This document shows positions 14,257 to 56,286 of a stretch of 64,000 nt of DNA, in pieces. The position numbers and the translations under genes are program-made. Numbering within the stretch: position 1 is the first letter of the stretch; each line of letters opens with the position of its first letter. A model generated the notes under the pieces. The model was not told the origin of the DNA. It saw nothing but the letters and a program-made list of their open reading frames with translations, and did no database searches. Source of the DNA: an uncultured Anaerolineales bacterium (GTDB lineage Bacteria; Planctomycetota; Phycisphaerae; FEN-1346); the NCBI GenBank assembly GCA_964526295.1, contig CAZGKW010000007.1:5136-69135 (forward strand), written 5' to 3'.

Positions 14257-14314
14257 GGGCGACCCGGCGGCGGGGGGCGGCCGGCACGGGACCGATGGGC
14301 GGAAAGGGACACCC

Positions 14315-19282: not shown

Positions 19283-19372
19283 GCCCGCGTACCCGATGCG
19301 GCGGCCCGCGGCGTGGTCATGGCCGGGCCGTGCCGCCGGCCGCAAGCCCACAAGACCCGGAAGGAGGTCGGC

Positions 19373-20518
19373 GTGGAGTATACGCAGCTTGGCAGGACCG
19401 GTGTTCGCGTCTCGCGGCTCGGGTTCGGGGCCATGCGGCTGCCGATGGTCCAGGTCGGAGACGAGCAGTACGTCGACATGGACCGGGCGGTCGAGGCGTT
19501 CCATCGGGCGTTCGAGCTGGGCGTCACCTACGTCGACACGGCGTTCCTCTATTGCTCGCAGCAGAGCGAGTTCGCCGTCGGCCGGGCCCTCCGGGGGCGG
19601 CGCGACCAAGTGGTCCTGACGACCAAGGCGACGAAGCAGCGGATGGCCCGCCAGGGCGACCTCCGACGGATGCTCGACCACCAGCTCCAGCGGCTCGAGG
19701 TCGACTACCTCGACTTCTACCTGTTCCACGGGATCGGCCTGGAGAACTTCCACGAGTTCGACCGCAAAGGCGGGTGGCTCGCCGACATGATGCGGGCCCG
19801 AGACGAGGGCCTCGTCCGCCACGTGGGCTTTTCGTTCCACGACAAGCCTGAGGGCCTCGTGAGGCTCGTCGACCTCGGACACTTCGAGATGCTGACCTGC
19901 CAGTACAACTATCTCGACCGTAAGAACGCCGAGGCGATGGCCTACGCCAGGGAGAGGGGCCTCGGCGTCGTCGTGATGGGCCCGGTGGGCGGGGGACGCC
20001 TGGCCGGCCTGCCGGGGTTCCTCTCCGGCGCCGCCGGGCTCGACACCTCCCATGCCGCCCAGCTCGCCCTGCGGTTCGTCCTGGCGAACCCGAACGTCGA
20101 CGTGGCCCTCTCGGGGATGGGCAGCCGCGAGATGGTCGAGGAGAACGTGGCGGCGGTGGAGGCCGGGCCGCTCTCGGAGGATGAGCACGAGGCCCTCGCC
20201 CGGCTCCTCGAGGAGACGCGCCAGCTCGCCGACCTCTACTGTACCGGCTGCGGCTACTGCATGCCGTGTCCCCAGGGGGTGGACATCCCCGGCCGATTCG
20301 CGGCGATGAACGCCTTCAAGGTCTACCGGATGGAGGACCACGCCCGCCGGAGCTACGCGAACGTCCGCCGCCGGGAGGCGAAGAGCGAAGGGCAGGGCAC
20401 GTGCATCGAGTGCCGCGAGTGCGAGGCCAAGTGCACCCAGGAGATCGCGATCGTCGACCAGCTCCGCGAGACCGATGCCGCCCTGGCCGAGCCGGCCGCC
20501 GCCGCCGCGGCGACGTAG
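19373..20518 (+). CDS. aldo/keto reductase fused to C-terminal 4Fe-4S ferredoxin-like domain
   Basis: GTG at 19373 after AAGGAGG gives VEYTQLGRTGVRVSRLGFGAMRL.... The AKR core is followed by CTGCGYCMPCPQG...CIECRECEAKC Cys clusters. Confidence 0.8.
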   Translation: MEYTQLGRTGVRVSRLGFGAMRLPMVQVGDEQYVDMDRAVEAFHRAFELGVTYVDTAFLYCSQQSEFAVGRALRGRRDQVVLTTKATKQRMARQGDLRRMLDHQLQRLEVDYLDFYLFHGIGLENFHEFDRKGGWLADMMRARDEGLVRHVGFSFHDKPEGLVRLVDLGHFEMLTCQYNYLDRKNAEAMAYARERGLGVVVMGPVGGGRLAGLPGFLSGAAGLDTSHAAQLALRFVLANPNVDVALSGMGSREMVEENVAAVEAGPLSEDEHEALARLLEETRQLADLYCTGCGYCMPCPQGVDIPGRFAAMNAFKVYRMEDHARRSYANVRRREAKSEGQGTCIECRECEAKCTQEIAIVDQLRETDAALAEPAAAAAAT

Positions 20519-20552: not shown

Positions 20553-21302
20553 TCACCACATGGCCTCCGACAGCTCCCCGTGGCGGTCGATCCAGAGGGA
20601 CGTCTTGTCGGCATCGAGGGCCTTGATCGTCCGGGCGATCGCGCTGCCCGATTCCTCCGGCGCGAGTGTCGCGTTCGGACCGCCCATGTCCGTCCGCACC
20701 CATCCCGGCGAGAGGGCCACCACCGTGATCCCGTCGTCCTTCAGGGCAAAGGCGAGCTGGCGGGTGATCATGTTCAGGGCCGCCTTGCTCGTCCGGTAAT
20801 GGACCATGTCGGGGCCCTTGATGCCCTTCAGGGACCCGGCCCCGGACGAGACGTTGACGATGCGCGGACGGTCGGATTTCCGAAGGAGCGGCAGCATCGC
20901 CCGGGCGACGCGAAGCGGTCCCAGGGCGTTCGTCTCGAACGTCCGCCGCATCTGGTCGAAGTTGATCTCCAGCGGCGAGGCCGGCTCGACCTTCGGGTTG
21001 ATCCCGGCGTTGTTGAGGAGGGCGTCCAGCCGGTCCACCTTGGCGGCTACTTCCTTCGCGGCGGCCGAGGCCGACTCGTCCGAATCGACGTCCAGTTCGA
21101 CGACGTGGACCGTCTCGGGGTGGTCATCGCGGAGGGCCTTGAGATCGCCGGCGTCGTCCGGCCACCGGCACGCCGCCACGACCGTGTCGCCGGCGGCCAC
21201 CAGGGCCCGGGCGACCTCCAGGCCGATGCCGCGGTTTGCTCCCGTCACGAGGACAATCTCCGGCACGGATGGCCCCTTTCGTCGGTTAAGAGGCTGTTTC
21301 AT
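20553..21302 (-). CDS. SDR-family short-chain dehydrogenase/reductase
   Basis: MKQPLNRRKGPSVPEIVLVTGANRGIGLEVAR is a TGxxxGIG cofactor-binding motif. It also has NNAG and Y..SKAA catalytic motifs. The track ORF extends 23 codons further upstream, to 21371. Confidence 0.85.
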   Translation of the reverse strand: MKQPLNRRKGPSVPEIVLVTGANRGIGLEVARALVAAGDTVVAACRWPDDAGDLKALRDDHPETVHVVELDVDSDESASAAAKEVAAKVDRLDALLNNAGINPKVEPASPLEINFDQMRRTFETNALGPLRVARAMLPLLRKSDRPRIVNVSSGAGSLKGIKGPDMVHYRTSKAALNMITRQLAFALKDDGITVVALSPGWVRTDMGGPNATLAPEESGSAIARTIKALDADKTSLWIDRHGELSEAMW

Positions 21303-21489
21303 CGCTTCCCTCTCCCCCTCGCGGGAAAGGGGCGGGGGGAGGGGGCTGAGAGCGACTGAGACAGCCTTCATGCATCTGCGGGACAGGGTTATCCTAGACC
21401 CGTCCGACAGGCGGGGTCAAGCGCGGCCGAATGTGCCAGAGGGCCGGACGAGATCGGCGGCCCGCGAGGCCGGCCGCGGCGGTCTGTGA

Positions 21490-24788: not shown

Positions 24789-24932
24789 CCGGCCCGCCCG
24801 CCGACCCGGCCGCGTTGCGTCCTGACGAGGCGCCGCGAAGCGGGAACACCGTTGCTTTCTCCGCCCCGCGGGGTTAGACGAAGAGGCCGAATCGCGAGCA
24901 GCGGAGTCCATGCAGCCACAGGAGGCGTACCG

Positions 24933-26027
24933 ATGAGGATGAGCGGCAAGGCAATGAGCTGGGTCGTGGCGACCGTCATGGCGGCGACGGTCGCGCTGGC
25001 CTGGACGAGTGCCGAGTGTGCCCCGAAAGGGCCGGCGTACGCCTCGGTCGAGGAGGCCCGCAAGACCGGGCCCGGCTACGACCTCCAGGGCGAGTACGAG
25101 GGCACCGTCGGCGGAGAGAAGATCGGCGTTCAGGTCATCGCCCTCGGCAGCGACCAGTTCCAGGCCGTCTTCCTGCCGGGGGGTCTGCCGGGCGCCGGCT
25201 GGGACGAAAAGACCAAGGTCCTGTGCCAGGGCAAGCTCGACGGCGACACCGTCGCCTTCGGGCCCGCGGCGGGGGATCGCAAGTACATGGCCGGCAAGCC
25301 CGAGGAGTTCAGCGCCACCAAGCAGTTCCCGCCCGAGGGGCAGAAGCCCTACACCGCCACGCTCAAAGACGGCAAACTGAGCGGCAAGACCGACGCCGGG
25401 GAGCCCATCGAGGCGAAGCGCGTCGAGCGGAAGGGCCCTACGCTCGAGATGAAGCCGCCCGCCGGCGCGATCGTCCTGCTCCCTTACGAGGCGGGCCAGC
25501 CCACCTCGCTCGAGGAGTGGACGAACCAGGATTGGGACGTCAAGGGGCACGGCGGTGTCACCGTGACGAAGGGCAGCAACAAGACGAAGAAGACGTTCAG
25601 CGGCCCGTGGCGGATGCACCTGGAGTTCAAGACGCCTTTCCAGCCGACGGCCCGCAGCCAGGGGCGGGGCAACAGCGGCGTCTTTCCGCCGGGGGGACGC
25701 GAGATCCAGGTCCTCGACTCGTTCGGCCTGGAAGGGCTGCCTAACGAGTGCGGAGGCATCTACAAGAGCCATGCCCCCCGAGTGAACATGTGCCTCCCGC
25801 CCCTCCAGTGGCAGACCTACGACGTCTGGTACTACCCGGCGAAGCGGGGCGACGACGGCAAGATCGCCCAGCCCGCCTGGTACAAGGTGGTCCACAACGG
25901 CGTCACCATCCACGAGAAGGTGGACCTGGGCGAGGGCAAGGAAGGCGCCCTGAGCCTCCAGGACCACCGCAACCCGGTTTCGTATCGCAACATCTGGATC
26001 GAGCCGGAGCGGCCCGGCGCGGAATGA
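24933..26027 (+). CDS. DUF1080 / 3-keto-disaccharide hydrolase-family (LamG-like jelly roll) protein
   Basis: ATG at 24933 after AGGAGG, then a signal peptide. The C-terminal region WRMHLEFK...GNSGVF...EIQVLDS...GGIYK...LSLQDHRNPVSYRNIWIE matches DUF1080. Confidence 0.8.
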   Translation: MRMSGKAMSWVVATVMAATVALAWTSAECAPKGPAYASVEEARKTGPGYDLQGEYEGTVGGEKIGVQVIALGSDQFQAVFLPGGLPGAGWDEKTKVLCQGKLDGDTVAFGPAAGDRKYMAGKPEEFSATKQFPPEGQKPYTATLKDGKLSGKTDAGEPIEAKRVERKGPTLEMKPPAGAIVLLPYEAGQPTSLEEWTNQDWDVKGHGGVTVTKGSNKTKKTFSGPWRMHLEFKTPFQPTARSQGRGNSGVFPPGGREIQVLDSFGLEGLPNECGGIYKSHAPRVNMCLPPLQWQTYDVWYYPAKRGDDGKIAQPAWYKVVHNGVTIHEKVDLGEGKEGALSLQDHRNPVSYRNIWIEPERPGAE

Positions 26028-26063: not shown

Positions 26064-26984
26064 CTACGCTTCGCGGAACAGCTCCACGGCGCCGTAGAGG
26101 ACCGCCTCGTCCCACAGGGCCGCCCGGCGGATGGGCACGTCCGCCAAGCCTTCCACATCGATCAGGCGGCGGAACCGTTCCCGGACAGGCTCGACCATCC
26201 ACGCCGGGTCCCGGCACAGGCCTCCGGCGAGGGTCACGACGTCCGGCGCCAGGAGCTCGACGACGAACGCGAGCGCCGCCGCCAGCACGTCCCGGGCCCG
26301 CTCGACCACCCGGACCGCCACCGGGTCGCCCGCCTCCATGGCCGCTACGACGGCCTCCGCGGTCAGGCCCTCGCGGGGCAGACCGGTTTCCTCGCCGCGG
26401 GCCATCCGCTCCAGGGCCCGCTTCACCAGTCCTGTGCCGGAGGCCGTGTCGTTGAGGTTCGGCAGGTCGGGCTCCCCCTGGAAGGCCCCCGGCCGGAAGC
26501 ACCAGATGTCGCCGGCCAGGCCCCGGTGCCCCTGCCATATTCGCCCGTCGACGACGGTCCCCGTCCCGAGGCCCGTGCTGATCGTCATGTAAAAGAGGCC
26601 CCGGCAGCCCCGGCCGCTGCCGTGGAGCGCTTCGCCCAGGGCCCCGGCGTTGGCATCGTTCTCCAGGCGAACCGGGACGCCGAGCCGCTCGCTCAATCGG
26701 GCCGCGAGGGGGAAGTCCCGCCACTCGGGCAGGTTCGGCGGCGCGAGCACGACGCCGTCCGCCTGGCTCAGCGGTCCGGGGCACCCGACACCCACGCCGC
26801 CGAGAGGCGCGGGCAGATTTGCCTCCGCGATGGCGTTGCCGATCAGCCGGGCGGCGGCGTCCGGGTCCCGAGGCGTGGCGGCGCGGAGGAGCGTCTCGAT
26901 CCGCTCGCCGCGGAAGTGCCCGATTTGCGTCTTCGTGCCGCCGATGTCGACGCCGACGATGGTCCCTGGCTGGGCCACGGTCAT
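26064..26984 (-). CDS. ROK-family sugar kinase (glucokinase/N-acetylglucosamine kinase-like)
   Basis: MTVAQPGTIVGVDIGGTKTQ is the N-terminal ATPase motif. ...LENDANAGALGE... and GLGTGTVVDG are ROK signatures. Confidence 0.85.
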   Translation of the reverse strand: MTVAQPGTIVGVDIGGTKTQIGHFRGERIETLLRAATPRDPDAAARLIGNAIAEANLPAPLGGVGVGCPGPLSQADGVVLAPPNLPEWRDFPLAARLSERLGVPVRLENDANAGALGEALHGSGRGCRGLFYMTISTGLGTGTVVDGRIWQGHRGLAGDIWCFRPGAFQGEPDLPNLNDTASGTGLVKRALERMARGEETGLPREGLTAEAVVAAMEAGDPVAVRVVERARDVLAAALAFVVELLAPDVVTLAGGLCRDPAWMVEPVRERFRRLIDVEGLADVPIRRAALWDEAVLYGAVELFREA

Positions 26985-26988
26985 GACC

Positions 26989-27903
26989 TTACTCGCTCAG
27001 GCAGCGGACGCCTTCGGCCGCGGCGGCCGCCGCGAGCCGCTCGACCTCCTCGTCCGGCAGCGGCGCCTCGTATGCTCCGTACGCATACGCTCGTCCGAGG
27101 CGCCGATATTTCGACCGGGCGAGCGGATTGAAGTTGATCAGCTCGACCGGCACCCGCTCGTCGACTTCGCGGACGTACCGGGCGACGGCCCGGACGTTCT
27201 CCTCGGTGGCCGTCACGGCGGGGATGAGCGGCACGCGGACGCGGACGTTCGTCCCGCGCCGGCAAAGCGCCTCGAAGTTCGCCCGGATCGGGTCGCTTGG
27301 GCGGCCGGTCAGCTCCTCGTGCCGCGCCGAGTCGGTCAGCTTCAGGTCGACCAGGAACAGGTCCACCAGGTCGACCAGTGGCTCGACCGTCTCGGGCGCG
27401 GCGAAGAGGCACGTCTCGATGGCCGTGTGCAACCCCTCCTCGCGGCAGAGGCCCAGCACCTCGCGGCTGAAGGCCGCCTGAAACAGCGGGTCGCCGCCCG
27501 AGAGCGTCACGCCCCCGCCGGAGGTCTCGTAGAACACGCGGTCCTTGAGGACCTCCTCGACGACCTCGGCGGCGCCCATCTCGCGGGCGTCGAACTCGAG
27601 CGCCGCCGAGGGGCATTCCCGGACGCACGCGCCGCAGACGGTGCACCGCTCGCGGTGGATGCGGACGGCCGGCTCCCCCTCGGCCTCGCCCGCCGAGAGG
27701 GCGTCCTCGGGGCAGACCTCGATACATCGATGGCACCGGATGCATCGGCCCTCGGTGTACCAGATGCCGATCTCCGGCGCGATGCCCTCCGGGTTCTGGC
27801 ACCACGGGCACGCCAGGGGGCACCCCTTGAGGAACACCGTCGTCCGGATGCCCGGCCCGTCGTGGACCGCGAATCGCTTGATGTCGAACACCGTGCCGCG
27901 CAA
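26989..27903 (-). CDS. glycyl-radical enzyme activating protein (radical SAM, PFL-AE family)
   Basis: CPLACPWC is a CX3CX2C radical SAM motif. An internal ferredoxin-like C-rich insert (CIRCHRCIEVCP...CTVCGACVRECP) is present. It sits immediately downstream of GRE-1. Confidence 0.9.
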   Translation of the reverse strand: MRGTVFDIKRFAVHDGPGIRTTVFLKGCPLACPWCQNPEGIAPEIGIWYTEGRCIRCHRCIEVCPEDALSAGEAEGEPAVRIHRERCTVCGACVRECPSAALEFDAREMGAAEVVEEVLKDRVFYETSGGGVTLSGGDPLFQAAFSREVLGLCREEGLHTAIETCLFAAPETVEPLVDLVDLFLVDLKLTDSARHEELTGRPSDPIRANFEALCRRGTNVRVRVPLIPAVTATEENVRAVARYVREVDERVPVELINFNPLARSKYRRLGRAYAYGAYEAPLPDEEVERLAAAAAAEGVRCLSE

Positions 27904-27906
27904 CGC

Positions 27907-30303
27907 CTACCTCCCGAACGTCGTCCGCGCGATGATCTCGTCCTGGAGCTCCTCGGCCAGCTCCGTGAAGTAGGCCGTGTAGCCCGCGACGCGGACCGTC
28001 AGGTGGCGGTACGCCTCGGGGTCGGCCTTGGCCCGGAGGAGGTCCTCGCGTCGGACGACGTTGAACTGGGCGTGATGGATGCCGAGCCGGACCAGCCCTT
28101 CCAGCAGGGCCGCGAACTTCTCCCGGTCGGCCTCCCGCCGGAAGAACGCCGGCAGGAACTTCATGTTCAGAAGCGTCCCGTTGCTGCCCCAGATCGAGCC
28201 GACCCGGGCGACGCTCTTCAGGACCGCCGTCGGTCCCCGGACGTCCCGCCCGGACATCGGCGAGAGACCTCCGTCCGCCAGGGGCGCCCCGGCCCGGCGG
28301 CCGTCGGGTGTCGCGCCGACGTTGCGGCCCATCGGCACGTGGGCCGAGACCGTGTAGAAGCCGGCGTGGTACGGCCCGCCGCGGGCGTTCTCGTGCGTGG
28401 CGAGCTTCCGGGCGAACGCCTCCGCCCACTTCGCCGCGAGACGGTCGACCCACTCGACGTCGTTGCCGTACTTCGGCACGTGCGCGAGGAGATGCTGCCT
28501 GAGCGGCTCGTCGCCCTCGAAGTCGCGCCGCAGGGCGTCCAGCAAGCGGCCGGGCTCCACGGATCGCTCCTCGAAGACGCACTGCCGGATGGCCGCCAGG
28601 CTGTCGGCCAGGTTCGCCGGCTGGATGCCCTGGACGCCGGAGAGGTTGTACCGGGCGCCGCCGGCGGTCACGTCGACGCCGCGCGCCAGACAATCGTCGA
28701 CCACGCTCGAGAGGAGCGGCGACGGGACGACCTCGGCGTGGGTCCGGTCCACGGCGTCGCAGGCCCGGACCATGATGGGCAGGAAGTAATCGAGCTGGGC
28801 TTCGAGGGCCCGCTCGACGTCCTCGAACGAGCGGTGGTCGGCCAGCGTGCCCGTCCGCGGCCCCAGAGGCTCGCCCGTCAGCAGACATCGACCGTCGTTG
28901 ATGGCCAGCTCCAGGGCCTTGACGAGGTTGAGCATGGCGGCGTCGCTCCAGCCCAGGAAGTTGCCCTGGGCCGACAGCTCGACGCACCCGACCACGCCGT
29001 AGTCCCGGGCGGCGCGCTCCTCGACGCCGCGGGCCATGAGGGCGGGAACCACGCTCTCGTCGTTGAAGACCTGGGGCATGCCGCTCCCGAGGCCGATCAC
29101 GCGGACGACCTCCAGGAGGAACCGCCGCGGCGAGCCCCGATGGAGACGGGCCGAGAGGTTCGGCTGCGGCAGGCCGAGGTGCTCCTGGGCCTTGAGGCAG
29201 AGGTACGAGAGGGCGTTCGTCGCGTCGGTGCCGTCCGGCGTCCGGCCGCCGATCGCGCCGTTGAAACCGATCGGGAAGCCGGCGAAGTAGCGGGCCCCCT
29301 CGGTGCTTCGCATGTAGACGATCGAATTGAACTTCAGGAAGAGGGCTTCGAGGACCTCCAGGGCGCCGGGCAGGTCGAGCCGGCCGCTCGCCAGGTCGGC
29401 CGACAGGCAGGGCTCGAGTGTCTGGTCGATGCGGCCCGGCGAGAAGCTCGACGCGTTCGATTCCATCTGGAGCAGGACGAACAGGAACCAGAGCGACTGG
29501 ACCGCCTCGCGGAAGGTTGCCGGCGGATGGTCGGCCAGCCGGTCGGCGATGCGACCGATCGCCCCGAGGTCCGACCGCTCGGCCTCCGGCCGGTCGGCGC
29601 GGGCCATTTCGTCGGCGAGGCGGGCGTAGCGCCGCATGAAGTCCCGCGACGCCGACAGGGCCGTCACCACCGCGCGGTAGAAGTCGGCCCGCTCGCCGTC
29701 GGCCCCGGCCAGGCGCTGCTCGGCCTCGGCTTGGAGGCCCGCCGGGCCGAGCCGCAGCCACGTCCGGACGTTCGGGATGATGTGTCCCTGGGCGTGGTCC
29801 TTCTGGTTGATCTTGACGACGCGGTCGGCCCGCCGCACGTCCGCATCCAGCCGCTCGGCGACGCGGTCCTCCAGCGTCCGGCCCCGCCAGTAGGGCAGGA
29901 CCTCGGCGCGGAAGCGGCGGACGTCCTCGGCGGAGACGTCGAAGGTGTCCTGGGGCCGGGTCGGGAGCGACTCGATCTCGCGGTCGATCCACTCGACGGC
30001 CGCCTCGGGAAAGACGACGCCCGCCCGGCTCGTCGGCGTCCGGTTGCCGACGATCAGCTCGTCCGGGTCGATGCGGATGGTGATGTGGCGGAGCGTGTGG
30101 GCGAGGGCCTCGGCCCGCTGGACGATCCGCGGGGCCGACTCGTGGCGGCGATAGCTTTCCGTCACGAGCAGGGCCTGCTCGAGGCTGACGACCCGCCGCT
30201 CGGCCAGGAGCTTCTCCCTCAGGCGGCGGATGCGCGGCGTCGGCTCCAGGCCCGCCAGGGCCGCCGGGTCGGCCGCATCCAGTTGGCTCGGTGCGTCGGG
30301 CAT
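27907..30303 (-). CDS. glycyl radical enzyme (PFL-like fold), GRE-1
   Basis: 798 aa. The Cys loop is ...YGVVGCVELSAQG..., and the C-terminal glycyl radical motif is TVRVAGYTAYFTEL. Confidence 0.9.
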   Translation of the reverse strand: MPDAPSQLDAADPAALAGLEPTPRIRRLREKLLAERRVVSLEQALLVTESYRRHESAPRIVQRAEALAHTLRHITIRIDPDELIVGNRTPTSRAGVVFPEAAVEWIDREIESLPTRPQDTFDVSAEDVRRFRAEVLPYWRGRTLEDRVAERLDADVRRADRVVKINQKDHAQGHIIPNVRTWLRLGPAGLQAEAEQRLAGADGERADFYRAVVTALSASRDFMRRYARLADEMARADRPEAERSDLGAIGRIADRLADHPPATFREAVQSLWFLFVLLQMESNASSFSPGRIDQTLEPCLSADLASGRLDLPGALEVLEALFLKFNSIVYMRSTEGARYFAGFPIGFNGAIGGRTPDGTDATNALSYLCLKAQEHLGLPQPNLSARLHRGSPRRFLLEVVRVIGLGSGMPQVFNDESVVPALMARGVEERAARDYGVVGCVELSAQGNFLGWSDAAMLNLVKALELAINDGRCLLTGEPLGPRTGTLADHRSFEDVERALEAQLDYFLPIMVRACDAVDRTHAEVVPSPLLSSVVDDCLARGVDVTAGGARYNLSGVQGIQPANLADSLAAIRQCVFEERSVEPGRLLDALRRDFEGDEPLRQHLLAHVPKYGNDVEWVDRLAAKWAEAFARKLATHENARGGPYHAGFYTVSAHVPMGRNVGATPDGRRAGAPLADGGLSPMSGRDVRGPTAVLKSVARVGSIWGSNGTLLNMKFLPAFFRREADREKFAALLEGLVRLGIHHAQFNVVRREDLLRAKADPEAYRHLTVRVAGYTAYFTELAEELQDEIIARTTFGR

Positions 30304-30368
30304 CGCTCTATCTTACACGGGCGTCGGCCGGGGGAAAGGCCGCCGGGTCGTCGCGAAGCGTCCGCGCG

Positions 30369-31562
30369 TCAGCGGTAACGGTCGACGAAGCCGATCGTCC
30401 GGCCCCGGTCGAAGAACGGGTCCGGGTGCCGCGGGGCCCCGAGGTAGGACGGCTCCTTCTGGCTGACGTTGTTGGCGCAGGTCGTCCCCTCGCCCTCGGC
30501 CAGGACGTCGCCCTCGGTGAAGAAGTTGACGTTGTTTCCGAGGATGACGTTGTTGCGGCACGAGGCGTGCTCGCGGATGCCGTATTCCATCCAGAGCTGG
30601 CCGCCCCAGTTGAAGACGGAGTTGCCGACGACCTGGACGCCCGCGGTCTCGCCCTCCAGGAGGATCCCGATGAGGCGGGCGTCGCGGCGCCCCGAGCCCG
30701 AGTCGATGACGTTGTTGGCGTTGATCGAGCCCCACTTGACGTCCCGCACGACGATGCCGTGCCCCAGGTGCCAGCAAAATATATTACTTGAGATATTGAT
30801 CTCGTGGGCGGTGTCGACGACGACCGCCGCATCGGAGACCTGGAAGCTCCGGCAGCCCGATACGAGGACGCTGTTGCTCGTCGTGTGGATGTGGTAGGCG
30901 GGCCCGGCGCTCTGGTACACCGCGCAGCCGAGGATGTTCAGGACGATGGCGCGTCGGCACTCGATCCCGGCACCGCCCGCGTAGACGACGCAGCCGGAGA
31001 CCAGGTTCGGCACGTAGTTGCCGATGCGTCCCCCGTCGGCCAGGTGGTCGGCGAAAACGCCCGCCTTGCCGTTCTCGGCCAGGCGGCAGCCCCGGACCTC
31101 GCACAGAAACGAGTTATTGCGCATCCACACGCCGTACCCCGCGAAGCCGACGCAGAAGAGGTCCCGCACCTGGCAGTCGCCGCAGTCGTCGAGGACGACG
31201 CCGGCCTCGGCGTCGGCGTTCTCGCCCGCCTTGAGGGCGAGGTCCGAGACGAGCGCCCCCCCGAGCCCCCGGCACAGGATTCCGACGCCGGTGTCGTGCT
31301 CCCGCGCGAGGACCAGCTCGGTGGCCCGTCCGCTGCCGCGGAGCCACACGTTGTCCGCCAGGTGCAGCTCCTTCCGAAGGACGTACCGCCCCTCGTGGAG
31401 GAGGACGGAGCCGCCGGTCTCGGGCAGGCGGTCGACGGCCGCCTGGATGGCCTCCGAGGCGTCCGCCGTCGCGAGGACCTCCCGGCCGCTCGCCCGGTGA
31501 CGGGCCCGGACGGTCCCGTCGTCGAGGTAGACTTCGCAGCCCTGCGAGCTTCCTCCGGTCAT
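30369..31562 (-). CDS. right-handed parallel beta-helix repeat protein
   Basis: Repetitive ...G..I.....N.V..N.. turns with many Gly/Asn/Cys, which is a pectin-lyase-fold signature. The start is taken as the MTGGSSQGCEVYLDDG ATG at 31562; the track ORF extends to 31790. Confidence 0.6.
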   Translation of the reverse strand: MTGGSSQGCEVYLDDGTVRARHRASGREVLATADASEAIQAAVDRLPETGGSVLLHEGRYVLRKELHLADNVWLRGSGRATELVLAREHDTGVGILCRGLGGALVSDLALKAGENADAEAGVVLDDCGDCQVRDLFCVGFAGYGVWMRNNSFLCEVRGCRLAENGKAGVFADHLADGGRIGNYVPNLVSGCVVYAGGAGIECRRAIVLNILGCAVYQSAGPAYHIHTTSNSVLVSGCRSFQVSDAAVVVDTAHEINISSNIFCWHLGHGIVVRDVKWGSINANNVIDSGSGRRDARLIGILLEGETAGVQVVGNSVFNWGGQLWMEYGIREHASCRNNVILGNNVNFFTEGDVLAEGEGTTCANNVSQKEPSYLGAPRHPDPFFDRGRTIGFVDRYR

Positions 31563-31779
31563 GGTCGGTCTCCGGTCTTGCGTCGCGTCGTCTTGCGCCT
31601 CTTGTACTGAGACAGCGCCGGCGTGCAAGCCGAAACCGTCGCGCCGCACGCCCCGTTCCGGGAAAGCACTACCCATGCGGCCGCGGGTCGTATAGTCTGG
31701 GACAGCGTTGCCAGCCCGGCGCGTGTGTACAGGCACCGGCTCATGGCCACGAAGCGCACCAAGCGAAGGAGGTCCCGGC

Positions 31780-32760
31780 ATGGCCGACAAGGTCCGTTAC
31801 GGCGTCATCAGCACGGCCCGCATCGCCCGGAAGTCGCACATCCCCGCCGCCGCCAAGACGACGAACTGCGAGATCGTCGCCATCGCCAGCCGCGACCAGA
31901 GTCGGGCGGAGCACTGGGCGGGCGAGCTGGACATCCCCCGGGCCTATGGTTCCTACGCCGAGCTGCTCGACGATCCGGACGTCGACGCCGTCATCAACGC
32001 CACGCCGAACAGCCTCCATGCCGAGTGGACCGTCCGGGCGGCCGAGGCCGGCAAGCACATCCTGTGCGAGAAGCCGTTCGCGATGACCGTGGAGGAGGCC
32101 GACGGGATGATCGCCGCCGCCCGCGACGGGGGCGTGCTGCTGATGGAGGCGTTCCGCTACCGGTTCCACCCGCAGGTGCCGTTCGTCCGCGAGACGATCG
32201 ATTCGGGCGAGGTCGGCGAGCTGCGCCTGACGCGCGTCGAGCTTCTCTACACGATCCAGGACTGGGCGGGCGACTCGCGCGTCAAGCCGGGGCTCGGCGG
32301 CGGGTGCCTCATGGACGCCGGCTGCTACACCGTCAACCTGACGCGGTTCCTCATGGGGGCCGAGCCGGTCCGCGTGCAGGCGTTCGAGCGGCGCCGGGCC
32401 GAGCCGGCCGTCGACACGACCTTCGCGGGCCTCATGGAGTTCCCCGGCGACCGGCTCGCGTACGTCGCGACGGGCATGGAGGAGCCGTTCCGGTTTACGT
32501 GCGAGGTGATCGGTTCGGAGGGCACGATCCGCGTGGCACACTGTTTCGCGGGCGGGGCGGTGACCGTGGAGTCCGGCGGCCAGGAGAAGGTCCGCGAGTT
32601 CGACGGCATTGACCAGTTCCAGGCCCAACTCGAACACTTCTCCGACTGCATCCTGAGCGGCACGCCGCCGATGTTGCCGGTGGAAGACGCCCGGGGCAAC
32701 ACGGCGGCGCTGGTGGCCCTCCGCCGCGCCGCCGCGGAAGGACGGGCGATTGACGTGTAG
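31780..32760 (+). CDS. Gfo/Idh/MocA-family NAD(P)-dependent oxidoreductase
   Basis: ATG at 31780 after AAGGAGG gives MADKVRYGVISTARIARKSHIPA.... ...EKPFAMTVEEADGM... is the classic EKP motif. Confidence 0.85.
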   Translation: MADKVRYGVISTARIARKSHIPAAAKTTNCEIVAIASRDQSRAEHWAGELDIPRAYGSYAELLDDPDVDAVINATPNSLHAEWTVRAAEAGKHILCEKPFAMTVEEADGMIAAARDGGVLLMEAFRYRFHPQVPFVRETIDSGEVGELRLTRVELLYTIQDWAGDSRVKPGLGGGCLMDAGCYTVNLTRFLMGAEPVRVQAFERRRAEPAVDTTFAGLMEFPGDRLAYVATGMEEPFRFTCEVIGSEGTIRVAHCFAGGAVTVESGGQEKVREFDGIDQFQAQLEHFSDCILSGTPPMLPVEDARGNTAALVALRRAAAEGRAIDV

Positions 32761-32810
32761 CGACGGCGGGGGCGAGCGGCGTTACGTCGAGGCGTGAGGA
32801 AGGGCAGGGG

Positions 32811-35114
32811 ATGGCTAGGACGGTCGAAGTTGCGGAGTTGGTGGGCCGGCCGGACACGCCGCGCGTCGCCGACCTGAGGCTGCGGGTCTGGGAGGCGATG
32901 GAGCGGCCGCCCGTCGCGTGGGATTGCCCCGAGCGGATCGCCGAGGCGCCCATGGCCGAGCCGCTCGCGGTCCGCAAGGCCCGCGCGATCGCCCTGAAGC
33001 TCGCCCACATGCCCACGGACCTGTGGCGGGGGCAGCTCCTGGCCGGGTCGATGACGCTCGAGGAGCCCCGCGTCCACGCCGAGCGGGGCTTCCCGGATTA
33101 CACGACCGAGGCCGAACGGGCCGCGGCGGCCGAGAAGGGCCTCTCGGTCCACTCCGTCTTCGGCCACATCGTGCCGGACTACCCGCGGTTGCTGGCGAAG
33201 GGGCTTCGGGGCATCCTGGCCGACGTCGACGCCCAGCGCCCCTCAGCCGAGTCTCCCGAGGAGACGGCGTTCCTCGATTCGGTCGCCATCGCGCTGAAGG
33301 CGGTGATGGCGTTCGCTTCGCGCCTGGCCGACCGGTGCGATGCCGAGGCCGAGGCGTGCGCCGACGCATCGCGGGCCGCCGAGCTGTCGCAGATGGCCGC
33401 CGACCTGCGGCAGGTGCCCGCCGGGCCCGCCCGGACCTTCGCCCAGGCCCTCCAGTCGGTCTGGCTGCTGCACATGATCTTCCATTCGACGATGAACGGC
33501 AACGCCCTCGGGCGGCTCGACCAGTACGCCTGGCCCTACCTGGAGGCGGACCTGGCGGCGGGCCGCACGTCGTGGACCGAGGCGGCCGAGCGGGTCGACT
33601 GCTTTTGCCTCAAGTTCAACGAGCGGGCCAAGACCACCGAGGAGCAGCGGCCCGATGGCCGCGAGGACGAGCCGATCGACCTCCGGCAGCGGACGCGGCA
33701 CACGACCTCGTCGCAGCTCGGACGCCGCCGCGACCGGCTCGACGCGACGAACCACTGGCTCCAGAACATCGTCGTCGGCGGTCGGACGCCCGGCGGGGGG
33801 GACGGCACGAACTCGCTCTCGCTGCTCCTCCTGGAGAGCTATCGCCGGAACCGGATGACCAACCCGCTGGTGACGGTGCGGCTCCATCGCGGCTCGCCCG
33901 AGGGGCTCGTGCGGCGGGCCGCCGAGGTGCTCAAAGAAGGCGGCGGGATGCCCGCCCTCTTCAACGACGAGGCGCTCGTCCCGGCCCTGGAGCGGATCGG
34001 CATCCCGACGCCCGACGCCCGCGACTATACGAACGACGGCTGCTGGGAGGTGATCGTCCCCGGGCGGACGGACTTCCGGTTCCAGCGCTTAAGCGCGATG
34101 CTGTGCCTGGAGCGGGCCCTCGGCCGCGGGCAGGCCCGGCTGGACGGCTGGCCGATGGGCCCGGACACGGGCGACCCGCGGGCGTTCGAGGCGTTCGAGG
34201 ACATCTGGCGGGCGTTCGAGGCGCAGCTCGATGCGATGATCGCTCGGACCGTCCGGCGGGTCGTCAAGCGGCTGGACGAGCGGTCGACGATCGCCCCGGT
34301 GCCGCTCCTCTCGGCCCTCGTTGATGGGGCGATCGAGTCGCGGCGCGACATGACGGCCGGCGGGGCCCGGTTCCGCATGTTCGGGATGCTCTGCGAAGGG
34401 GCGGCCCACGCCATCGACTCGCTCGTGGCGATCCGGACGGTGGTCTTCGAGGACGAGGCCGCGACGATGGCCGAGCTTTGCGATGCGCTCGAGGCGGACT
34501 TCGAGGGCCGCGAGCCGCTCCGGCGCCGGCTGCGCGCCGCCCCGAAGTACGGCAACGACGACGACCGGGCGGATGCCCTCGGGCGGCGGATGATCGAGGC
34601 GTTCACCGCGTCGGTGGCGCGGCACGCCGAGGCCCACCGCTGGCGGGTGCGGTTCCCGTGCGGCGTGGGGACGTTCTCGTGGTACGTCGGCATCGGCGAG
34701 GGGCTGGGGGCGTCGGCCGACGGTCGCGGCGCGGGCGAGCCGGTCTCGTCGAACTTCTCGCCCGCCCTGGGGCGCGACGTCGAGGGGATCCCCGGGGCGA
34801 TCCTCTCCTACGCGAAGATGCACCAGGCCCATCTGCCGGCCGGCGGACCGCTCGACGTGCGCCTGGCGCGGCGGCTGGTCGAGGGGGAGGCCGGCACGGA
34901 GCGTCTGGCCGCCCTCCTCCGGGGCTTCGTCGACACCGGCGGGGCCATGCTCACCCTCACCGTCGCCGACACCGAGGAGCTTCGGGCCGCCCAGCGGGAA
35001 CCCGAGCGGCACCGGTCGCTCCGCGTCCGGATGGGCGGCTGGAGCGCCTACTTTACGATGCTGAGCCGCGAGCAGCAGGACCATCACATCCGCCGCCAGG
35101 AAGGGCGGGCATGA
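32811..35114 (+). CDS. glycyl radical enzyme (PFL-like fold), GRE-2, with atypical radical-Gly motif
   Basis: 767 aa. The Cys loop is ...YTNDGCWEVIVPG.... The C-terminal RVRMGGWSAYFTML replaces the canonical RVSGYSAxF. It is immediately followed by, and overlaps with, its activase. Confidence 0.85.
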   Translation: MARTVEVAELVGRPDTPRVADLRLRVWEAMERPPVAWDCPERIAEAPMAEPLAVRKARAIALKLAHMPTDLWRGQLLAGSMTLEEPRVHAERGFPDYTTEAERAAAAEKGLSVHSVFGHIVPDYPRLLAKGLRGILADVDAQRPSAESPEETAFLDSVAIALKAVMAFASRLADRCDAEAEACADASRAAELSQMAADLRQVPAGPARTFAQALQSVWLLHMIFHSTMNGNALGRLDQYAWPYLEADLAAGRTSWTEAAERVDCFCLKFNERAKTTEEQRPDGREDEPIDLRQRTRHTTSSQLGRRRDRLDATNHWLQNIVVGGRTPGGGDGTNSLSLLLLESYRRNRMTNPLVTVRLHRGSPEGLVRRAAEVLKEGGGMPALFNDEALVPALERIGIPTPDARDYTNDGCWEVIVPGRTDFRFQRLSAMLCLERALGRGQARLDGWPMGPDTGDPRAFEAFEDIWRAFEAQLDAMIARTVRRVVKRLDERSTIAPVPLLSALVDGAIESRRDMTAGGARFRMFGMLCEGAAHAIDSLVAIRTVVFEDEAATMAELCDALEADFEGREPLRRRLRAAPKYGNDDDRADALGRRMIEAFTASVARHAEAHRWRVRFPCGVGTFSWYVGIGEGLGASADGRGAGEPVSSNFSPALGRDVEGIPGAILSYAKMHQAHLPAGGPLDVRLARRLVEGEAGTERLAALLRGFVDTGGAMLTLTVADTEELRAAQREPERHRSLRVRMGGWSAYFTMLSREQQDHHIRRQEGRA

Positions 35115-36025
35115 CGGCACCGGCGGACCCGCTCGCGCCCCGTGGCCTGGTGTTCGACGTCGACACGTTCGCCGTCCACGACGGGCCGGGCATCCGCCTG
35201 GCGGTCTACCTGAAGGGCTGCCCGCTGGCGTGCCGGTGGTGTCACAGCCCGGAGTCGATCTCGCCACGTCCCGAGGTGCTGTTCCACCGCGACCGGTGCG
35301 TCCTGTGCGGACGGTGCGCCCGTGTCTGTCCGGCGGGCGTCCACACGGTGAGCGAGGCCGGGCACGCGGTGGACCGCGAACAGTGCGAGGTCTGCGGACG
35401 GTGCGTCGAGGCGTGCCCGGCGGGGGCGCTGCGGATCGCGGGACGCGAGGTGACGGCCCGAGAGATCGTCGAGCGGGCCGGGCGGATGCGGCCGTTCTTC
35501 GACCACTCCGGCGGCGGCGTGACGCTGACCGGCGGCGAGGTGACCGCCCAGCCGGAGTTCGCCGAGGCGGTGCTCGACGGGTGCCGCGGGCTCGGCGTGC
35601 ACACGGCGATCGAGACGTGCGGGGCCGCCTCGTGGCCGACGCTGGAGCGGCTGGCCGACCGGGCCGACCTCGTGCTCTATGACCTGAAGCTGATCGACGA
35701 GGCCGACCACCGGGTCTGGACGGGCGGGAGCAACCGGGCCATCCGGGCGAACGCCCGACGGCTGGCCGGTCGCAGCGTCGAGGTCCGCGTGCCGCTCATC
35801 CCCGGCGTCACGGACACCGAGGCGAACCTGCGGGGCCTGTTTGGCTTCTGCCGCGAGGCGGACCTTGAGCGCGTGACGCTGCTGCCGTTCAATCCGTCGG
35901 CGGGGGCGAAGTACGAGTGGCTCGGCCGGCCGTTCGAGGTCGACGCCGAGCCACAGACGGACGAGCAGCTTGGGGGAATCTGCGAGATGGGACGGGCGGC
36001 CGGGCTGGACGTGTCGGTCGGCTGA
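35111..36025 (+). CDS. glycyl-radical enzyme activating protein (radical SAM)
   Basis: ATG at 35111 overlaps the GRE-2 stop as ATGA. It has CPLACRWC (CX3CX2C) and a ferredoxin-like insert CVLCGRCARVCP...CEVCGRCVEACP. The upstream part of track ORF 34478..36025 is spurious. Confidence 0.9.
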   Translation: MTAPADPLAPRGLVFDVDTFAVHDGPGIRLAVYLKGCPLACRWCHSPESISPRPEVLFHRDRCVLCGRCARVCPAGVHTVSEAGHAVDREQCEVCGRCVEACPAGALRIAGREVTAREIVERAGRMRPFFDHSGGGVTLTGGEVTAQPEFAEAVLDGCRGLGVHTAIETCGAASWPTLERLADRADLVLYDLKLIDEADHRVWTGGSNRAIRANARRLAGRSVEVRVPLIPGVTDTEANLRGLFGFCREADLERVTLLPFNPSAGAKYEWLGRPFEVDAEPQTDEQLGGICEMGRAAGLDVSVG

Positions 36026-36095: not shown

Positions 36096-37052
36096 TCACA
36101 TCTCGGCCAGCTCGTTTCGCCAGAGCTCCCTCGCCTGCTCGACCACCTCCACGGGCGGATACTTGCCGTCGGCCGCCTCCAGGAGGCCGTCGGCCTGCTG
36201 CGGCGTGTTGATGCCGACGATGACGCTCGCCACCACCGGGTGGGCCAGGGCGAAGCGGATGGCGAACGAGACGAGCGAGTCGCCGATCTGGTCGCGGAAC
36301 GCCTCGACCACCTTGGCCCGCTTGGAGAACTCGGCCGCATGCCTGGGGTCGCTCAGGCGGTGCCCGTCCGGGGCGTCCTCCGGCGAGACGAACCGGTCGG
36401 TCAGGATGCCCTGGTAGAGTGGCCGAATGCACAGGAACCCCATCCCCCGCCGCTGGAGGTCGTCGAACAGGTCGGCCATCTCCATCTCGCACGGGTTGTA
36501 GTAGGCGATGAGGCCGTCGAAGCGTCCCGTCTCGATGGCCGCCCGGCCGCACGGGACCGTGTAGGGGAAGGTGAAGAGGTGGCCGACCTTCCCCTCGTCG
36601 CGCATCGTCTCGAACGTCTGGACGACCTCGGGCAGGACCTGCGCCAGGAGCGGCAGGCGCCGCTCGTCGGTGTTCGGGTCGGACCGCCACATATACTGAA
36701 GGATGGCGATGCGTTCGGCGTGCAGGTCCCTGAGGGCCTCCTCGACCCGGAGGCGGAACTCCGCCGGGTCGAACCGGTCGCCGTCCTGGAAGTCCGGGAC
36801 GGGCACCTTGATGACGTGGTGCAGCTCGCCCCGGCGGGGATGGTCCTTCAGGACCCGCTCGAGCATCCACCGGGTGCCGTACTCGTAGCTGGAGTGGATG
36901 AAGTTGACGCCGCCGTCGAGGACCCGCCGGAGGGCGGCCTCGCCGAGGCGGGACTTCTCGTCGTCGCCGGGGCTCCGAGCGGCGGCCCGCATGGGGCCGA
37001 GACAGATGACGCTCGCTACGATGTCCGTGCCGCCGATCGTGCGGTATTTCAT
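36096..37052 (-). CDS. aldo/keto reductase
   Basis: MKYRTIGGTDIVASVICLGPM... with an AKR-like (alpha/beta)8 pattern. The track ORF adds 6 upstream codons, to 37070. Confidence 0.8.
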   Translation of the reverse strand: MKYRTIGGTDIVASVICLGPMRAAARSPGDDEKSRLGEAALRRVLDGGVNFIHSSYEYGTRWMLERVLKDHPRRGELHHVIKVPVPDFQDGDRFDPAEFRLRVEEALRDLHAERIAILQYMWRSDPNTDERRLPLLAQVLPEVVQTFETMRDEGKVGHLFTFPYTVPCGRAAIETGRFDGLIAYYNPCEMEMADLFDDLQRRGMGFLCIRPLYQGILTDRFVSPEDAPDGHRLSDPRHAAEFSKRAKVVEAFRDQIGDSLVSFAIRFALAHPVVASVIVGINTPQQADGLLEAADGKYPPVEVVEQARELWRNELAEM

Positions 37053-37155
37053 GGGCAGTCCTTTCGTCAACGGTGAGCGGAGCCGGGGCCCCGGCCTGGC
37101 CCTACGGCGTGCTCTTGCACGCCGCGCGAAACTGACACCTTCCGAGCCTGTACCC

Positions 37156-38115
37156 TCAGGCGGTCGCTTCGTCGAGGCGCTGCATCTGGTCGGCCGTCAG
37201 ATCCAGGTCCGCCGCCCCGAGGTCCTCCTCGATCTGGTCCACGCTGCTGCACGAAAAGAGCGGCACGACGGCCGGGTCGCTCTGCATCATCCACGCCAGG
37301 ACGACCTGGTTGGGCGTGGCGCCGGTTTCCTCGGCGACGGCCCGGAGGGCCTCGAGGCGGGCCTCGTTCTCGGCCGTCCGGTAGGGCTCGCCGATCTCCT
37401 TGTCGTCACGGGTGTAGGCCCCCTTCATGAGCGGCGAGTAGGCGACGATTCGGACGTCGCGGCTGCGGCAGGCGTCCATCAGGTCGTCGTTCGCGGGCGG
37501 CCACAGCCTGTAGTCCACGCCCCGCTCGGGCCGCAGGTAGGTGTGCTTCTGCTGGACGGCGACGAAGGCGGCCGAGCCGTTCGCTTCGCTCACTTTGAGG
37601 GCCTCGGCCAGCCGCCACGCCTTGTGGTTGCTGGCGGCGACGAAGCGGACCTTGCCCGCCTTGACGAGCCGGTCGAACGCCTCCAGGGACTCCTCCAGGG
37701 GCGTGGAGCGGTCGTCGTTGTGGGTGTAGTAGAGGTCGATCGTGTCGATGTCGAGCCGCTTCAGGCTTTTCTCGCACTCGGCCTGGATGATGGCGGCCTT
37801 GAGGCCCCGCTCCGGGCCGGGCTCGTCGCCGGTCCCGGTGTAGTCGAAGCCGACCTTCGTGGCGAGGAACAACTGGTCGCGGTTGCCTCGGTCGGCCATC
37901 CATCGGCCGAGAAGCGACTCGCTTTCGCCGCCCACCCCGCCGGGCATCCAGTGGGCGTAGGCGTTGGCCGTATCGAGGAACGTCCCGCCGGCCTCGACGT
38001 AGCGGTCGAGCAGGCGGCGGGAGGTCTCCTCGTCGGTTCGCGTGCCGAACATCATCGTGCCCAGGCAAAGGGCGCTCACGTCGGCTCCCGAACGTCCAAG
38101 CGACAGCGTCTTCAT
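37156..38115 (-). CDS. aldo/keto reductase
   Basis: MKTLSLGRSGADVSALCLGTMMFG...FLDTANAY...LATKVG...IDLYYTHN. Confidence 0.85.
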   Translation of the reverse strand: MKTLSLGRSGADVSALCLGTMMFGTRTDEETSRRLLDRYVEAGGTFLDTANAYAHWMPGGVGGESESLLGRWMADRGNRDQLFLATKVGFDYTGTGDEPGPERGLKAAIIQAECEKSLKRLDIDTIDLYYTHNDDRSTPLEESLEAFDRLVKAGKVRFVAASNHKAWRLAEALKVSEANGSAAFVAVQQKHTYLRPERGVDYRLWPPANDDLMDACRSRDVRIVAYSPLMKGAYTRDDKEIGEPYRTAENEARLEALRAVAEETGATPNQVVLAWMMQSDPAVVPLFSCSSVDQIEEDLGAADLDLTADQMQRLDEATA

Positions 38116-42303: not shown

Positions 42304-42364
42304 CGGCCGATCCTCAGGCCCGTTCGGGCTTCCCTCGTTCCGCCATCTCCGCGGCGGGGCCCGG

Positions 42365-48375: not shown

Positions 48376-48420
48376 GCCCGCTTGCCGCTCGAAGACTTCC
48401 GCGGCAGGCTCGAACCGTTT

Positions 48421-51205: not shown

Positions 51206-51250
51206 CCGCTTGGCTCGCCAAGGCAGGCCCGCCTGCCCCCCTCACCCCAC

Positions 51251-51273: not shown

Positions 51274-51291
51274 AGGTCATGGCATGCCGGC

Positions 51292-56257: not shown

Positions 56258-56286
56258 GCAGACGGTCGAGACTTAGAGTTGCACGC

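Follow-up and report, generated by a model that had tools for sequence, protein, structure and literature searches.

Why an uncultured Anaerolineales bacterium (GTDB lineage Bacteria; Planctomycetota; Phycisphaerae; FEN-1346) should carry two glycyl-radical enzymes (GREs) side by side, each with its own activase and both surrounded by genes of sugar metabolism, and whether the two serve one pathway or two, are the questions raised by a stretch of 64,000 nucleotides of its genome (NCBI GenBank assembly GCA_964526295.1, contig CAZGKW010000007.1, positions 5,136 to 69,135 of the forward strand), which is referred to below as the window. Two intact GRE/activase pairs, GRE-1/AE-1 and GRE-2/AE-2, lie inside 10 kb of the window and are arranged as two divergent operons. 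The reading preferred here, which is given a probability of about 0.6, is that these are two separate modules: operon A would conduct kinase-dependent radical-mediated glycolysis by the route known for PflD and YbiW, and operon B would be an independent system belonging to a GRE branch that is marked by a DGCWE motif.

The G+C content of the window is about 70%; genes were chosen by third-position GC and then checked with Pfam and NCBIfam, and start codons agree with those called independently on L053, an identical contig of 8.7 kb. The elements of the two operons are as follows.

26064..26984, minus strand: ROK-family sugar kinase, 306 aa, without a DNA-binding domain; last gene of operon A (Pfam ROK, 159 bits)
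26989..27903, minus strand: AE-1, radical-SAM activase of GRE-1 (TIGR02494, 331 bits; Radical_SAM and two ferredoxin-like cluster motifs)
27907..30303, minus strand: GRE-1, PflD-type, 798 aa, with His174, Cys440, Glu442 and Gly774 (PFL-like, 651 bits, and Gly_radical)
30369..31562, minus strand: right-handed beta-helix protein, cytoplasmic, 397 aa; first gene of operon A (Pfam Beta_helix/NosD)
31563..31779, no strand: divergent intergenic spacer common to both operons, 217 bp (sequence read directly)
31780..32760, plus strand: Gfo/Idh/MocA oxidoreductase (Gfo), 326 aa; first gene of operon B (Pfam GFO_IDH_MocA and C-terminal domains)
32811..35114, plus strand: GRE-2, DGCWE branch, 767 aa, with His119, Cys411, Glu413 and Gly743 (PFL-like, 441 bits, and Gly_radical)
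35111..36025, plus strand: AE-2, radical-SAM activase of GRE-2 (TIGR02494, 297 bits)

Operon A is read from the minus strand in the order beta-helix gene, GRE-1, AE-1 and ROK gene, with spacings of 65 nt, 3 nt and 4 nt. Operon B is read from the plus strand in the order Gfo gene, GRE-2 (50 nt downstream) and AE-2, the last two genes being translationally coupled by an ATGA overlap at 35111-35114. A preliminary description of this DNA had called GRE-1/AE-1 co-operonic with the ROK gene, and GRE-2/AE-2 ATGA-coupled and preceded by a Gfo/Idh/MocA gene; this arrangement is borne out. The beta-helix gene, which it had listed as a flank of the cluster, is indeed present, but as a member of operon A and not a mere flank. 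The Gfo gene starts with the ATG at 31780 and has a strong ribosome-binding site (GAAGGAGG). A scan of the 217-bp spacer found no sigma-70-like promoter, scans for promoters and terminators being uninformative in a GC-rich genome.

Both GREs consist of a PFL-like barrel domain (PF02901) and a C-terminal glycine-radical domain (PF01228), and each contains the radical glycine and the catalytic cysteine (RVAG774Y and GC440VE in GRE-1; RMGG743W and GC411WE in GRE-2). AE-1 and AE-2 are both TIGR02494-type activases that contain ferredoxin-like inserts and the CxxxCxxC motif (CPLACPWC at residue 28 of AE-1; CPLACRWC at residue 37 of AE-2). The two pairs are therefore intact, as first described, and the Cys loops quoted for both enzymes are found in the translations. 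The term 'paralogous' applied to them earlier is loose, as identity is 35% between GRE-1 and GRE-2 and 47% between AE-1 and AE-2, and the GREs belong to different clades. The reported lack of bacterial microcompartment shell genes also holds: a tblastn search with PduA (an approximate query sequence) gave no match, either in the window or among the loci retrieved.

The function of GRE-1 can be approached through its nearest solved relatives, which are E. coli PflD (8yjo, 663 bits) and then Streptococcus dysgalactiae PflD (8id0, 622 bits); lower scores are obtained for propanediol dehydratase, glycerol dehydratase and CutC, all at about 540-555 bits, and for YbiW (470 bits). Identity is 44% to the E. 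coli PflD, 43% to the S. dysgalactiae PflD (about 41-45%) and 38% to YbiW. At 101 alignment columns that discriminate PflD-type from YbiW-type proteins (signature columns, not residue-by-residue substrate contacts), GRE-1 carries the PflD residue at 47 and the YbiW residue at 16; nine members of its clade all agree on the PflD state at 35 columns and on the YbiW state at four. Around the active site, the PflD motifs INQxDxxQGH, ESNASS, ARYFAGFP, VGCVEL, YTVSAHVP and LADGGLSP are kept. GRE-1 thus resembles PflD (8YJO; 8ID0 with bound substrate) in its GCVE Cys loop, in the QGH, ESNASS, ARYFAGFP and YTVSAHVP motifs and in its RVAGY glycine loop, and both have an activase of their own and a sugar-phosphorylating partner.

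PflD is described as a 1,5-anhydromannitol-6-phosphate C–O lyase and YbiW as a 1,5-anhydroglucitol-6-phosphate C–O lyase (PMC13450708, section 5.7; PMC12441222, section 5.1, citing Ma et al. JACS 2024). In the account given in those sections of work of 2024, both enzymes open the pyranose-like ring to yield 1-deoxyfructose-6-phosphate, which an aldolase cleaves into glyceraldehyde-3-phosphate and hydroxyacetone; the route is named radical-mediated glycolysis (anhydroglycolysis), and in E. coli the sugars are phosphorylated by the phosphotransferase system (PTS) (PMC13450708; PMC12441222). On sequence comparison, GRE-1 is best read as a predicted PflD-type sugar-phosphate C–O lyase, and it very probably acts on a kinase-made sugar phosphate. 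The preliminary description had found that known GRE substrates do not obviously fit a kinase/3-keto-sugar context; PflD and YbiW were missing from its list, and they explain the kinase directly. The chemistry of the GRE-1 type has for this reason been known since 2024 and is not new: of the earlier proposal of a radical step on a phosphorylated sugar derivative, the kinase-made sugar phosphate is retained for GRE-1, as a PflD-type substrate, and the novelty of the chemistry is not.

The genomic neighbourhoods of the GRE-1 clade were compared over 82 loci (81 relatives and the window's own contig, L053). The closer relatives are 55-72% identical to GRE-1 and come from metagenomes of varied sources (human gut included) and from Petrocella atlantisensis. 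The activase follows the GRE in 73 of the 82 loci; a DeoR regulator is found in 27, a ROK kinase in 16, a sugar ABC importer in about 16, an aldolase of the fructose-6-phosphate-aldolase type (FSA/TAL) in 13 and a 608-aa ASKHA-like protein in 13. The aldolase gene lies directly after the activase gene in six loci. The loci with a ROK gene take in four of the closest relatives (L055, L056, L058 and L060), the ROK protein of L060 being 51% identical to that of the window, and the Petrocella locus carries ROK, ABC transporter and FSA genes as well. In seven loci (L054, L067, L072, L086, L095, L103 and L116), the GRE-1-type gene adjoins a gene for a YbiW-type GRE (49-74% identical to E. coli YbiW), an enzyme (8ID7) that shares the same pathway logic; the 64-kb window encodes no YbiW-type protein. 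In the E. coli reference loci, gldA-fsaB-ptsA adjoins frwCB-pflD-pflC-frwD, and ybiW-ybiY adjoins fsaA. This pattern of neighbours is the one predicted by a two-epimer anhydrohexitol pathway in which a kinase replaces the PTS.

Two features of these loci are recorded separately. The 608-aa protein (L054, 13342-15168, and 12 other GRE-1-type loci) is encoded directly after the activase, lacks a Pfam match and has an ASKHA-like DVGGTD motif; as its motif suggests, it may be a new sugar kinase of the GRE-1 pathway. In L095, genes for GMC and Gfo oxidoreductases, an RmlD-like reductase and a ribulose-phosphate-3-epimerase-like protein lie between the transporter and the GREs, and these extra enzymes could interconvert anhydro-sugars.

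Within operon A, the ROK protein, whose best solved relatives are glucokinases, is the proposed kinase for the GRE-1 substrate. The beta-helix protein has no signal peptide in its translation, and no solved sequence relative of it was found. One homologue (50% identity) follows the GRE-1-type and ROK genes of L060, two lie in L140 after a run of GRE (of the GRE-1 type), activase, LacI, substrate-binding protein and two permeases, and another follows an unrelated GRE in Pontiella sulfatireligans (L141); the remaining homologues adjoin sulfatases or lie in a SusD-type locus among genes of polysaccharide utilization loci (PULs). The family resembles enzymes that act on glycans or glycosides, and it is at times coupled to GREs. 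By a weak inference, the window's protein is a putative supplier of the GRE-1 substrate through glycoside cleavage, and the cytoplasmic family may be a new enzyme class that provides GREs of at least two clades with substrates of the anhydro-sugar type.

The Pontiella GRE (CAAHFH010000001.1; L141, 6642-9065) is itself of a third kind, with 807 aa and about 25% identity to GRE-1, GRE-2, PflD and YbiW. It has the Cys loop LPQGCGEMT (GCGE) and the glycine loop MVRVGGWTARF, and its operon encodes MFS_2, GRE, activase, beta-helix protein, AGE-family epimerase, GH130 and sulfatase. This is apparently a further uncharacterised GRE with a link to the breakdown of glycans.

In the scheme proposed for operon A, the ROK kinase would phosphorylate a 1,5-anhydrohexitol-type sugar, a task that falls to the PTS in E. 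coli; conceivably, the cytoplasmic beta-helix enzyme would first release this sugar from a glycoside. AE-1, with S-adenosylmethionine, would generate the radical on Gly774. By analogy with PflD and YbiW, the radical would move to Cys440, which would abstract hydrogen at C2 while Glu442 deprotonates the C2 hydroxyl; the ring C1–O5 bond would then be cleaved and the hydrogen returned, yielding a 1-deoxy-ketose 6-phosphate. An aldolase encoded outside the window would split this product into glyceraldehyde 3-phosphate and hydroxyacetone.

GRE-2 presents a different picture. Its best solved match is CutC (337 bits), but all characterised clades score within 230-340 bits, only the C-terminal 450 residues align well, and identity to any solved GRE is 30% or less. 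No NCBIfam equivalog comes near its cut-off, the scores being far below. In Foldseek comparison of an AlphaFold (AF2) model (pLDDT 81, pTM 0.85), all eliminase/isomerase GREs match about equally (TM 0.70-0.76, 22-28% identity). Clustering with one characterised clade was thus not seen in the solved-protein search, in Foldseek or in NCBIfam, so that the placement of the two enzymes among characterised clades, which the preliminary description had called for, succeeds for GRE-1, nearest to PflD, and not for GRE-2.

The family to which GRE-2 belongs comprises 557 proteins at E <= 1e-20, of which the best 120 are 70-78% identical to it, and in species-representative genomes it is 60-81% identical over at least eight phyla. 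The labels of the metagenome-assembled genomes include Planctomycetota/Phycisphaerae, Armatimonadota, Chloroflexota, Poribacteria, Latescibacterota, Hebobacteria, Sumerlaeia and others. Median identity of relatives is 72% for GRE-2 and 60% for AE-2. Over 55 family members, the invariant residues are G118-H119 (H119 at the position of glycerol dehydratase His164), N231-A232, D409-G410-C411-W412-E413, F622-S623-W624-Y625, S647-N648-F649-S650-P651 and R738-V739-R740-M741-G742-G743-W744, together with H297, T299-S300-S301-Q302, R307-D308 and N314-H315-W316-L317-Q318-N319 of an insertion. Clusters that are sister to the family (33-46% identity) have the same shortened N-terminal region and the same GH, NHWLQN, DGCWE and RVRMGGW motifs, but vary at the pocket positions. 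The CWE loop is present in 43 of the 150 nearest cluster representatives at 50% identity, all of them metagenomic, unnamed proteins.

The insertion (residues 284-316, window 33660-33758) precedes the NHWLQN strand, is specific to the family and near-invariant over phyla, and is modelled by AlphaFold with low confidence. It is a putative element that may bind substrate or a partner.

In the definition given in section 5.6 of PMC13450708, GRE 1,2-eliminases (the characterised ones being GD, PD, HpfG, HypD, HpyG, HpzG, CutC, IslA/IseG and HpsG) are marked by a C-x-E motif in the Cys loop, and GRE-2 has this motif as the invariant C411-W412-E413. The difference between the Cys loops of GRE-1 and GRE-2 had been taken to imply different chemistry; both loops keep the C-x-E of eliminase/isomerase GREs, so the difference marks different clades and substrates rather than a different class of chemistry. 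Mapping of the pocket, by pairwise sequence alignment only, indicates that GRE-2 keeps the equivalents of His164, Cys433 and Glu435 of glycerol dehydratase (1R8W) and 1,2-propanediol dehydratase (5I2A, 9RCO), which are also the top Foldseek matches (TM about 0.74). It differs from these enzymes in overall identity (24-27%), in the Trp of its C-W-E loop and at the glycerol dehydratase positions Ser282 (Ala in GRE-2), Asp447 (Gln), Tyr339 (Leu), Tyr640 (Gly) and Ser642 (Phe). CutC and IslA likewise have the C-x-E loop, but CutC Asp216 is replaced by His in GRE-2, IslA Gln193 by His and IslA Arg189 (four residues before that His) by Ser, the IslA positions being mapped from the numbering of the review (PMC13450708). 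The substrate residues of these known eliminases (glycerol dehydratase Ser282 and Asp447, CutC Asp216, IslA Arg189 and Gln193) are accordingly not kept. GRE-2 also lacks about 34 residues before the GH motif that GRE-1, PflD and YbiW have, and has the conserved insertion. Archaeoglobus fulgidus PFL2 (2F3O), a solved GRE of unassigned function, resembles GRE-2 in its Cys loop (TDGCVE against NDGCWE), in a glycine loop ending in GW and in length, but it scores 290 bits only and lies outside the CWE branch. A literature search on GREs in the phyla of the GRE-2 family returned nothing relevant.

Judged from these aligned residues, GRE-2 keeps the catalytic apparatus of a C-x-E eliminase/isomerase, including the His that glycerol dehydratase uses as general acid, and its most likely reaction is a radical one at a hydroxylated carbon, either 1,2-elimination or ring opening. 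That it represents a deep GRE branch without a characterised member (at least about 40 clusters at 50% identity) and acts on a substrate outside the current GRE list is put forward tentatively, at slightly less than even odds.

The neighbourhoods of GRE-2 relatives were compared over 52 loci by tblastn with the window genes as queries and by de novo clustering and a Pfam census of operon mates. The activase, which directly follows the GRE in 41 of the 52 loci, is the sole conserved window neighbour. DUF1080, the beta-helix gene, ROK and the aldo-keto reductase (AKR) gene at 36096 have no match in these loci, the AKR gene at 37156 is matched once, and Gfo is matched in five loci at 25-32% identity and at varying positions. 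Since no sugar gene of the window recurs beside its relatives, the substrate of GRE-2 is not tied to those genes. Among 127 same-strand proteins encoded with the relatives, the census found PF12831 FAD oxidoreductase (10), URO-D (9), class-V aminotransferase (7), enolase superfamily (5-6), DAO (4), MBL (4) and AKR (3). The aminotransferase is encoded directly upstream of the GRE in seven loci (Phycisphaerae, Armatimonadota and Hebobacteria) and is AGXT-like (395 bits to alanine-glyoxylate aminotransferase 1vjo). In L024, the order is two FAD oxidoreductases, MBL, AKR, aminotransferase, GRE and activase; in L139, it is Aldedh, two amine oxidases, a major facilitator superfamily transporter, GRE and activase. 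M20 deacylases lie near the GRE in 5-6 loci. Other loci have unrelated genes, and the neighbourhoods as a whole are heterogeneous and reveal no single pathway. The mates give a weak hint of sugar-acid routes or of small compounds, nitrogen-linked or C2-C3, rather than of the context seen in the window.

The aminotransferase-AKR-GRE operons also suggested that GRE-2 might be a sulfolyase of the isethionate or 2,3-dihydroxypropane-1-sulfonate type or a phosphonate analogue of one. This was rejected as the leading candidate, as the aminotransferase is AGXT-like, not PhnW/Tpa, and the sulfonate triad is absent at the mapped positions (Arg189 and Gln193).

The genes that had suggested a sugar context for both GREs lie outside the two operons or, in the case of Gfo, at the head of operon B. 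Those outside are as follows.

24852..26027, plus strand: DUF1080 gene (Pfam scan)
36096..37070 and 37156..38115, minus strand: two AKR genes (Pfam/NCBIfam scan)
20553..21371: short-chain dehydrogenase/reductase (SDR) gene, earlier called an NAD-epimerase (weak Epimerase match)

The DUF1080 and AKR genes are on the strands opposite to the operons that they adjoin (DUF1080, plus strand, beside operon A; AKRs, minus strand, beside operon B). When the window genes were used as tblastn queries on the 82 GRE-1 loci, the activase, ROK and beta-helix genes recurred, and DUF1080 and the AKRs had no match. Matches to Gfo over the GRE-1 and GRE-2 loci are few, non-orthologous (25-34% identity) and at varying positions, and among the 133 loci GRE-1 and GRE-2 are adjacent in this genome only. 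Neither GRE system includes the DUF1080 and AKR genes. Because they are not conserved and the Gfo matches are not orthologous, the 'sugar' genes of the window are unfit for inferring GRE substrates. Of the flanks named in the preliminary description, the NAD-epimerase survives as the SDR gene with its weak Epimerase match, and the comparison of neighbourhoods gives the outcome that the description itself had named as refuting a tie between the flanks and the GREs. The best solved relatives of Gfo are 4had (176 bits), aldose-aldose oxidoreductase (152 bits) and KijD10, with 1,5-anhydrofructose reductase (2glx) in eighth rank at 121 bits and DgpA at 96 bits. The similarity of Gfo to 1,5-anhydro-D-fructose reductase (2GLX, 4KOA) is generic: the proteins share the same broad branch and are not orthologues.

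Several observations weigh against the two-module reading as stated. GRE-1 forms a clade sister to the proven PflDs, being about 41-45% identical to two enzymes that share 61% with each other, and a PflD-type substrate is assigned to it by comparison. The loop after its catalytic Cys reads GNFLGWSD where PflD has GRTYGLHD, and also carries a 16-aa insertion relative to PflD. Whereas E. coli has the Frw PTS together with fsaB and gldA, operon A has a ROK kinase and a beta-helix gene, and the window has no equivalent of fsaB or gldA; among its Pfam- and NCBIfam-checked genes, the 64-kb window encodes no FSA/TAL aldolase and no obvious sugar transporter or importer. The ROK protein keeps DIGGT but lacks the usual CxCGxxGCxE zinc motif, and the link of the beta-helix family to GRE-1-type genes is seen at three loci only. 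On the side of operon B, nothing in GRE-2 beyond the catalytic residues favours any particular reaction.

Two alternatives keep the modules apart and change a substrate. GRE-1 might apply the PflD mechanism to another sugar phosphate, derived from an anhydro- or deoxy-sugar freed by the beta-helix enzyme, in which case its clade would be a new specificity among GRE isomerases; the distance from the proven PflDs and the altered post-Cys loop with its insertion speak for this, as does the recurrence of the putative glycan-active beta-helix family with GRE-1-type genes and CUT1-type oligosaccharide importers, and elsewhere with sulfatases and PUL genes. Yet the whole clade retains the PflD signature residues close to the active site, and the two-epimer anhydrohexitol scheme would account for the co-located FSA aldolases and YbiW-type GREs. 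This alternative is considered somewhat unlikely. GRE-2, for its part, might act not on a sugar but on a small hydroxy compound, nitrogen-linked or C2-C3, such as an amine-derived alcohol or a derivative of a hydroxy-amino acid. The census led by FAD oxidoreductase, URO-D and class-V aminotransferase, the AGXT-like gene directly upstream of the GRE in seven loci of several lineages, the L139 operon with Aldedh and two amine oxidases, and the M20 deacylases nearby in 5-6 loci all point in that direction. However, most GRE-2 loci have none of these genes, the neighbourhoods are heterogeneous, with enolase-superfamily sugar-acid dehydratases and Gfo about equally frequent, and GRE-2 has neither a sulfonate-type Arg/Gln/Arg triad (mapped at Arg189 and Gln193) nor a CutC-type Asp. 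Families of these kinds are moreover presumably expanded in such genomes in general. This second alternative is considered rather unlikely.

The other alternatives join the modules into one pathway. If GRE-1 and an aldolase yielded hydroxyacetone and an AKR reduced it to 1,2-propanediol, GRE-2 could be a diol dehydratase forming propionaldehyde. This would make sense of the adjacent, divergent operons, of the two AKR genes just downstream of AE-2 (one weakly like the methylglyoxal reductase YdjG) and of the pairing of pflD in E. coli with gldA, the gene for propanediol dehydrogenase; GRE-2 also has His, Cys and Glu as in glycerol dehydratase, with more hydrophobic residues (Ala, Leu, Phe, Trp) at other pocket positions. 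Set against this are the 133 loci, in which no GRE-2 relative lies near a GRE-1-type gene, the Ala and Gln that replace glycerol dehydratase Ser282 and Asp447, a GRE-2 that is no nearer to propanediol dehydratase than to CutC or IslA, the lack of propionaldehyde-handling and microcompartment shell genes in the window, and AKR genes that are on the opposite strand and not conserved; such a pathway is quite improbable. Still less credible, and indeed very improbable, is the original proposal that both GREs, DUF1080, Gfo, the AKRs and the kinase form one new anaerobic pathway for dehydrating or cleaving a sugar in 3-keto or phosphorylated form. The genes do lie near each other, and Gfo is distantly related to DgpA and glycoside 3-dehydrogenases, but the 3-keto-sugar pathway fails because the flank genes are not conserved beside the relatives of either GRE (133 relatives, with scattered Gfo matches); DUF1080 and the AKRs are strand-opposed to the adjacent operons, and a known pathway explains GRE-1. 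The two-module reading is the one retained.

If the two-module reading holds, GRE-1 extends radical anhydro-sugar catabolism from gut Enterobacteria and Firmicutes to an environmental bacterium of 70% GC, with a kinase replacing the PTS and a possible upstream glycan-cleaving partner in the operon, and its system helps to ask where 1,5-anhydrohexitols originate in nature. GRE-2 is the more useful lead of the two. Because its family is strongly conserved, spans many phyla and has no assigned substrate, and because its catalytic residues and variable pocket positions are mapped, it is a well-defined target for enzyme discovery; should its substrate indeed be off the current list, a new anaerobic reaction of environmental importance would follow.

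Elsewhere in the window, an aldo-keto reductase fused to a C-terminal 4Fe-4S dicluster domain is encoded at 19313-20518, between PQQ_2 beta-propeller genes and the SDR gene. An arginase/agmatinase-family gene (14246-15259) lies near a gene for pyruvoyl-dependent arginine decarboxylase (16582-17709), and the two look like a polyamine synthesis pair that is unrelated to the GREs. On the minus strand, a run of large membrane and transport genes at 40261-54342 includes an OPT-family transporter, an ABC ATPase, a frame that is free of stops over 1890 codons and matches FtsX and M28, another FtsX protein and a DUF6785/DUF6784 protein of 1016 aa. The region 55400-61325 is a low-GC island (0.55, against about 0.70) with small zinc-ribbon and membrane open reading frames, a PEP-CTERM-type protein (57091-57774), a truncated second copy (57889-58425) of the N-terminal part of the PQQ_2 protein next to it and a Mutator-family transposase (60285-61325), and is probably a mobile-element insertion.

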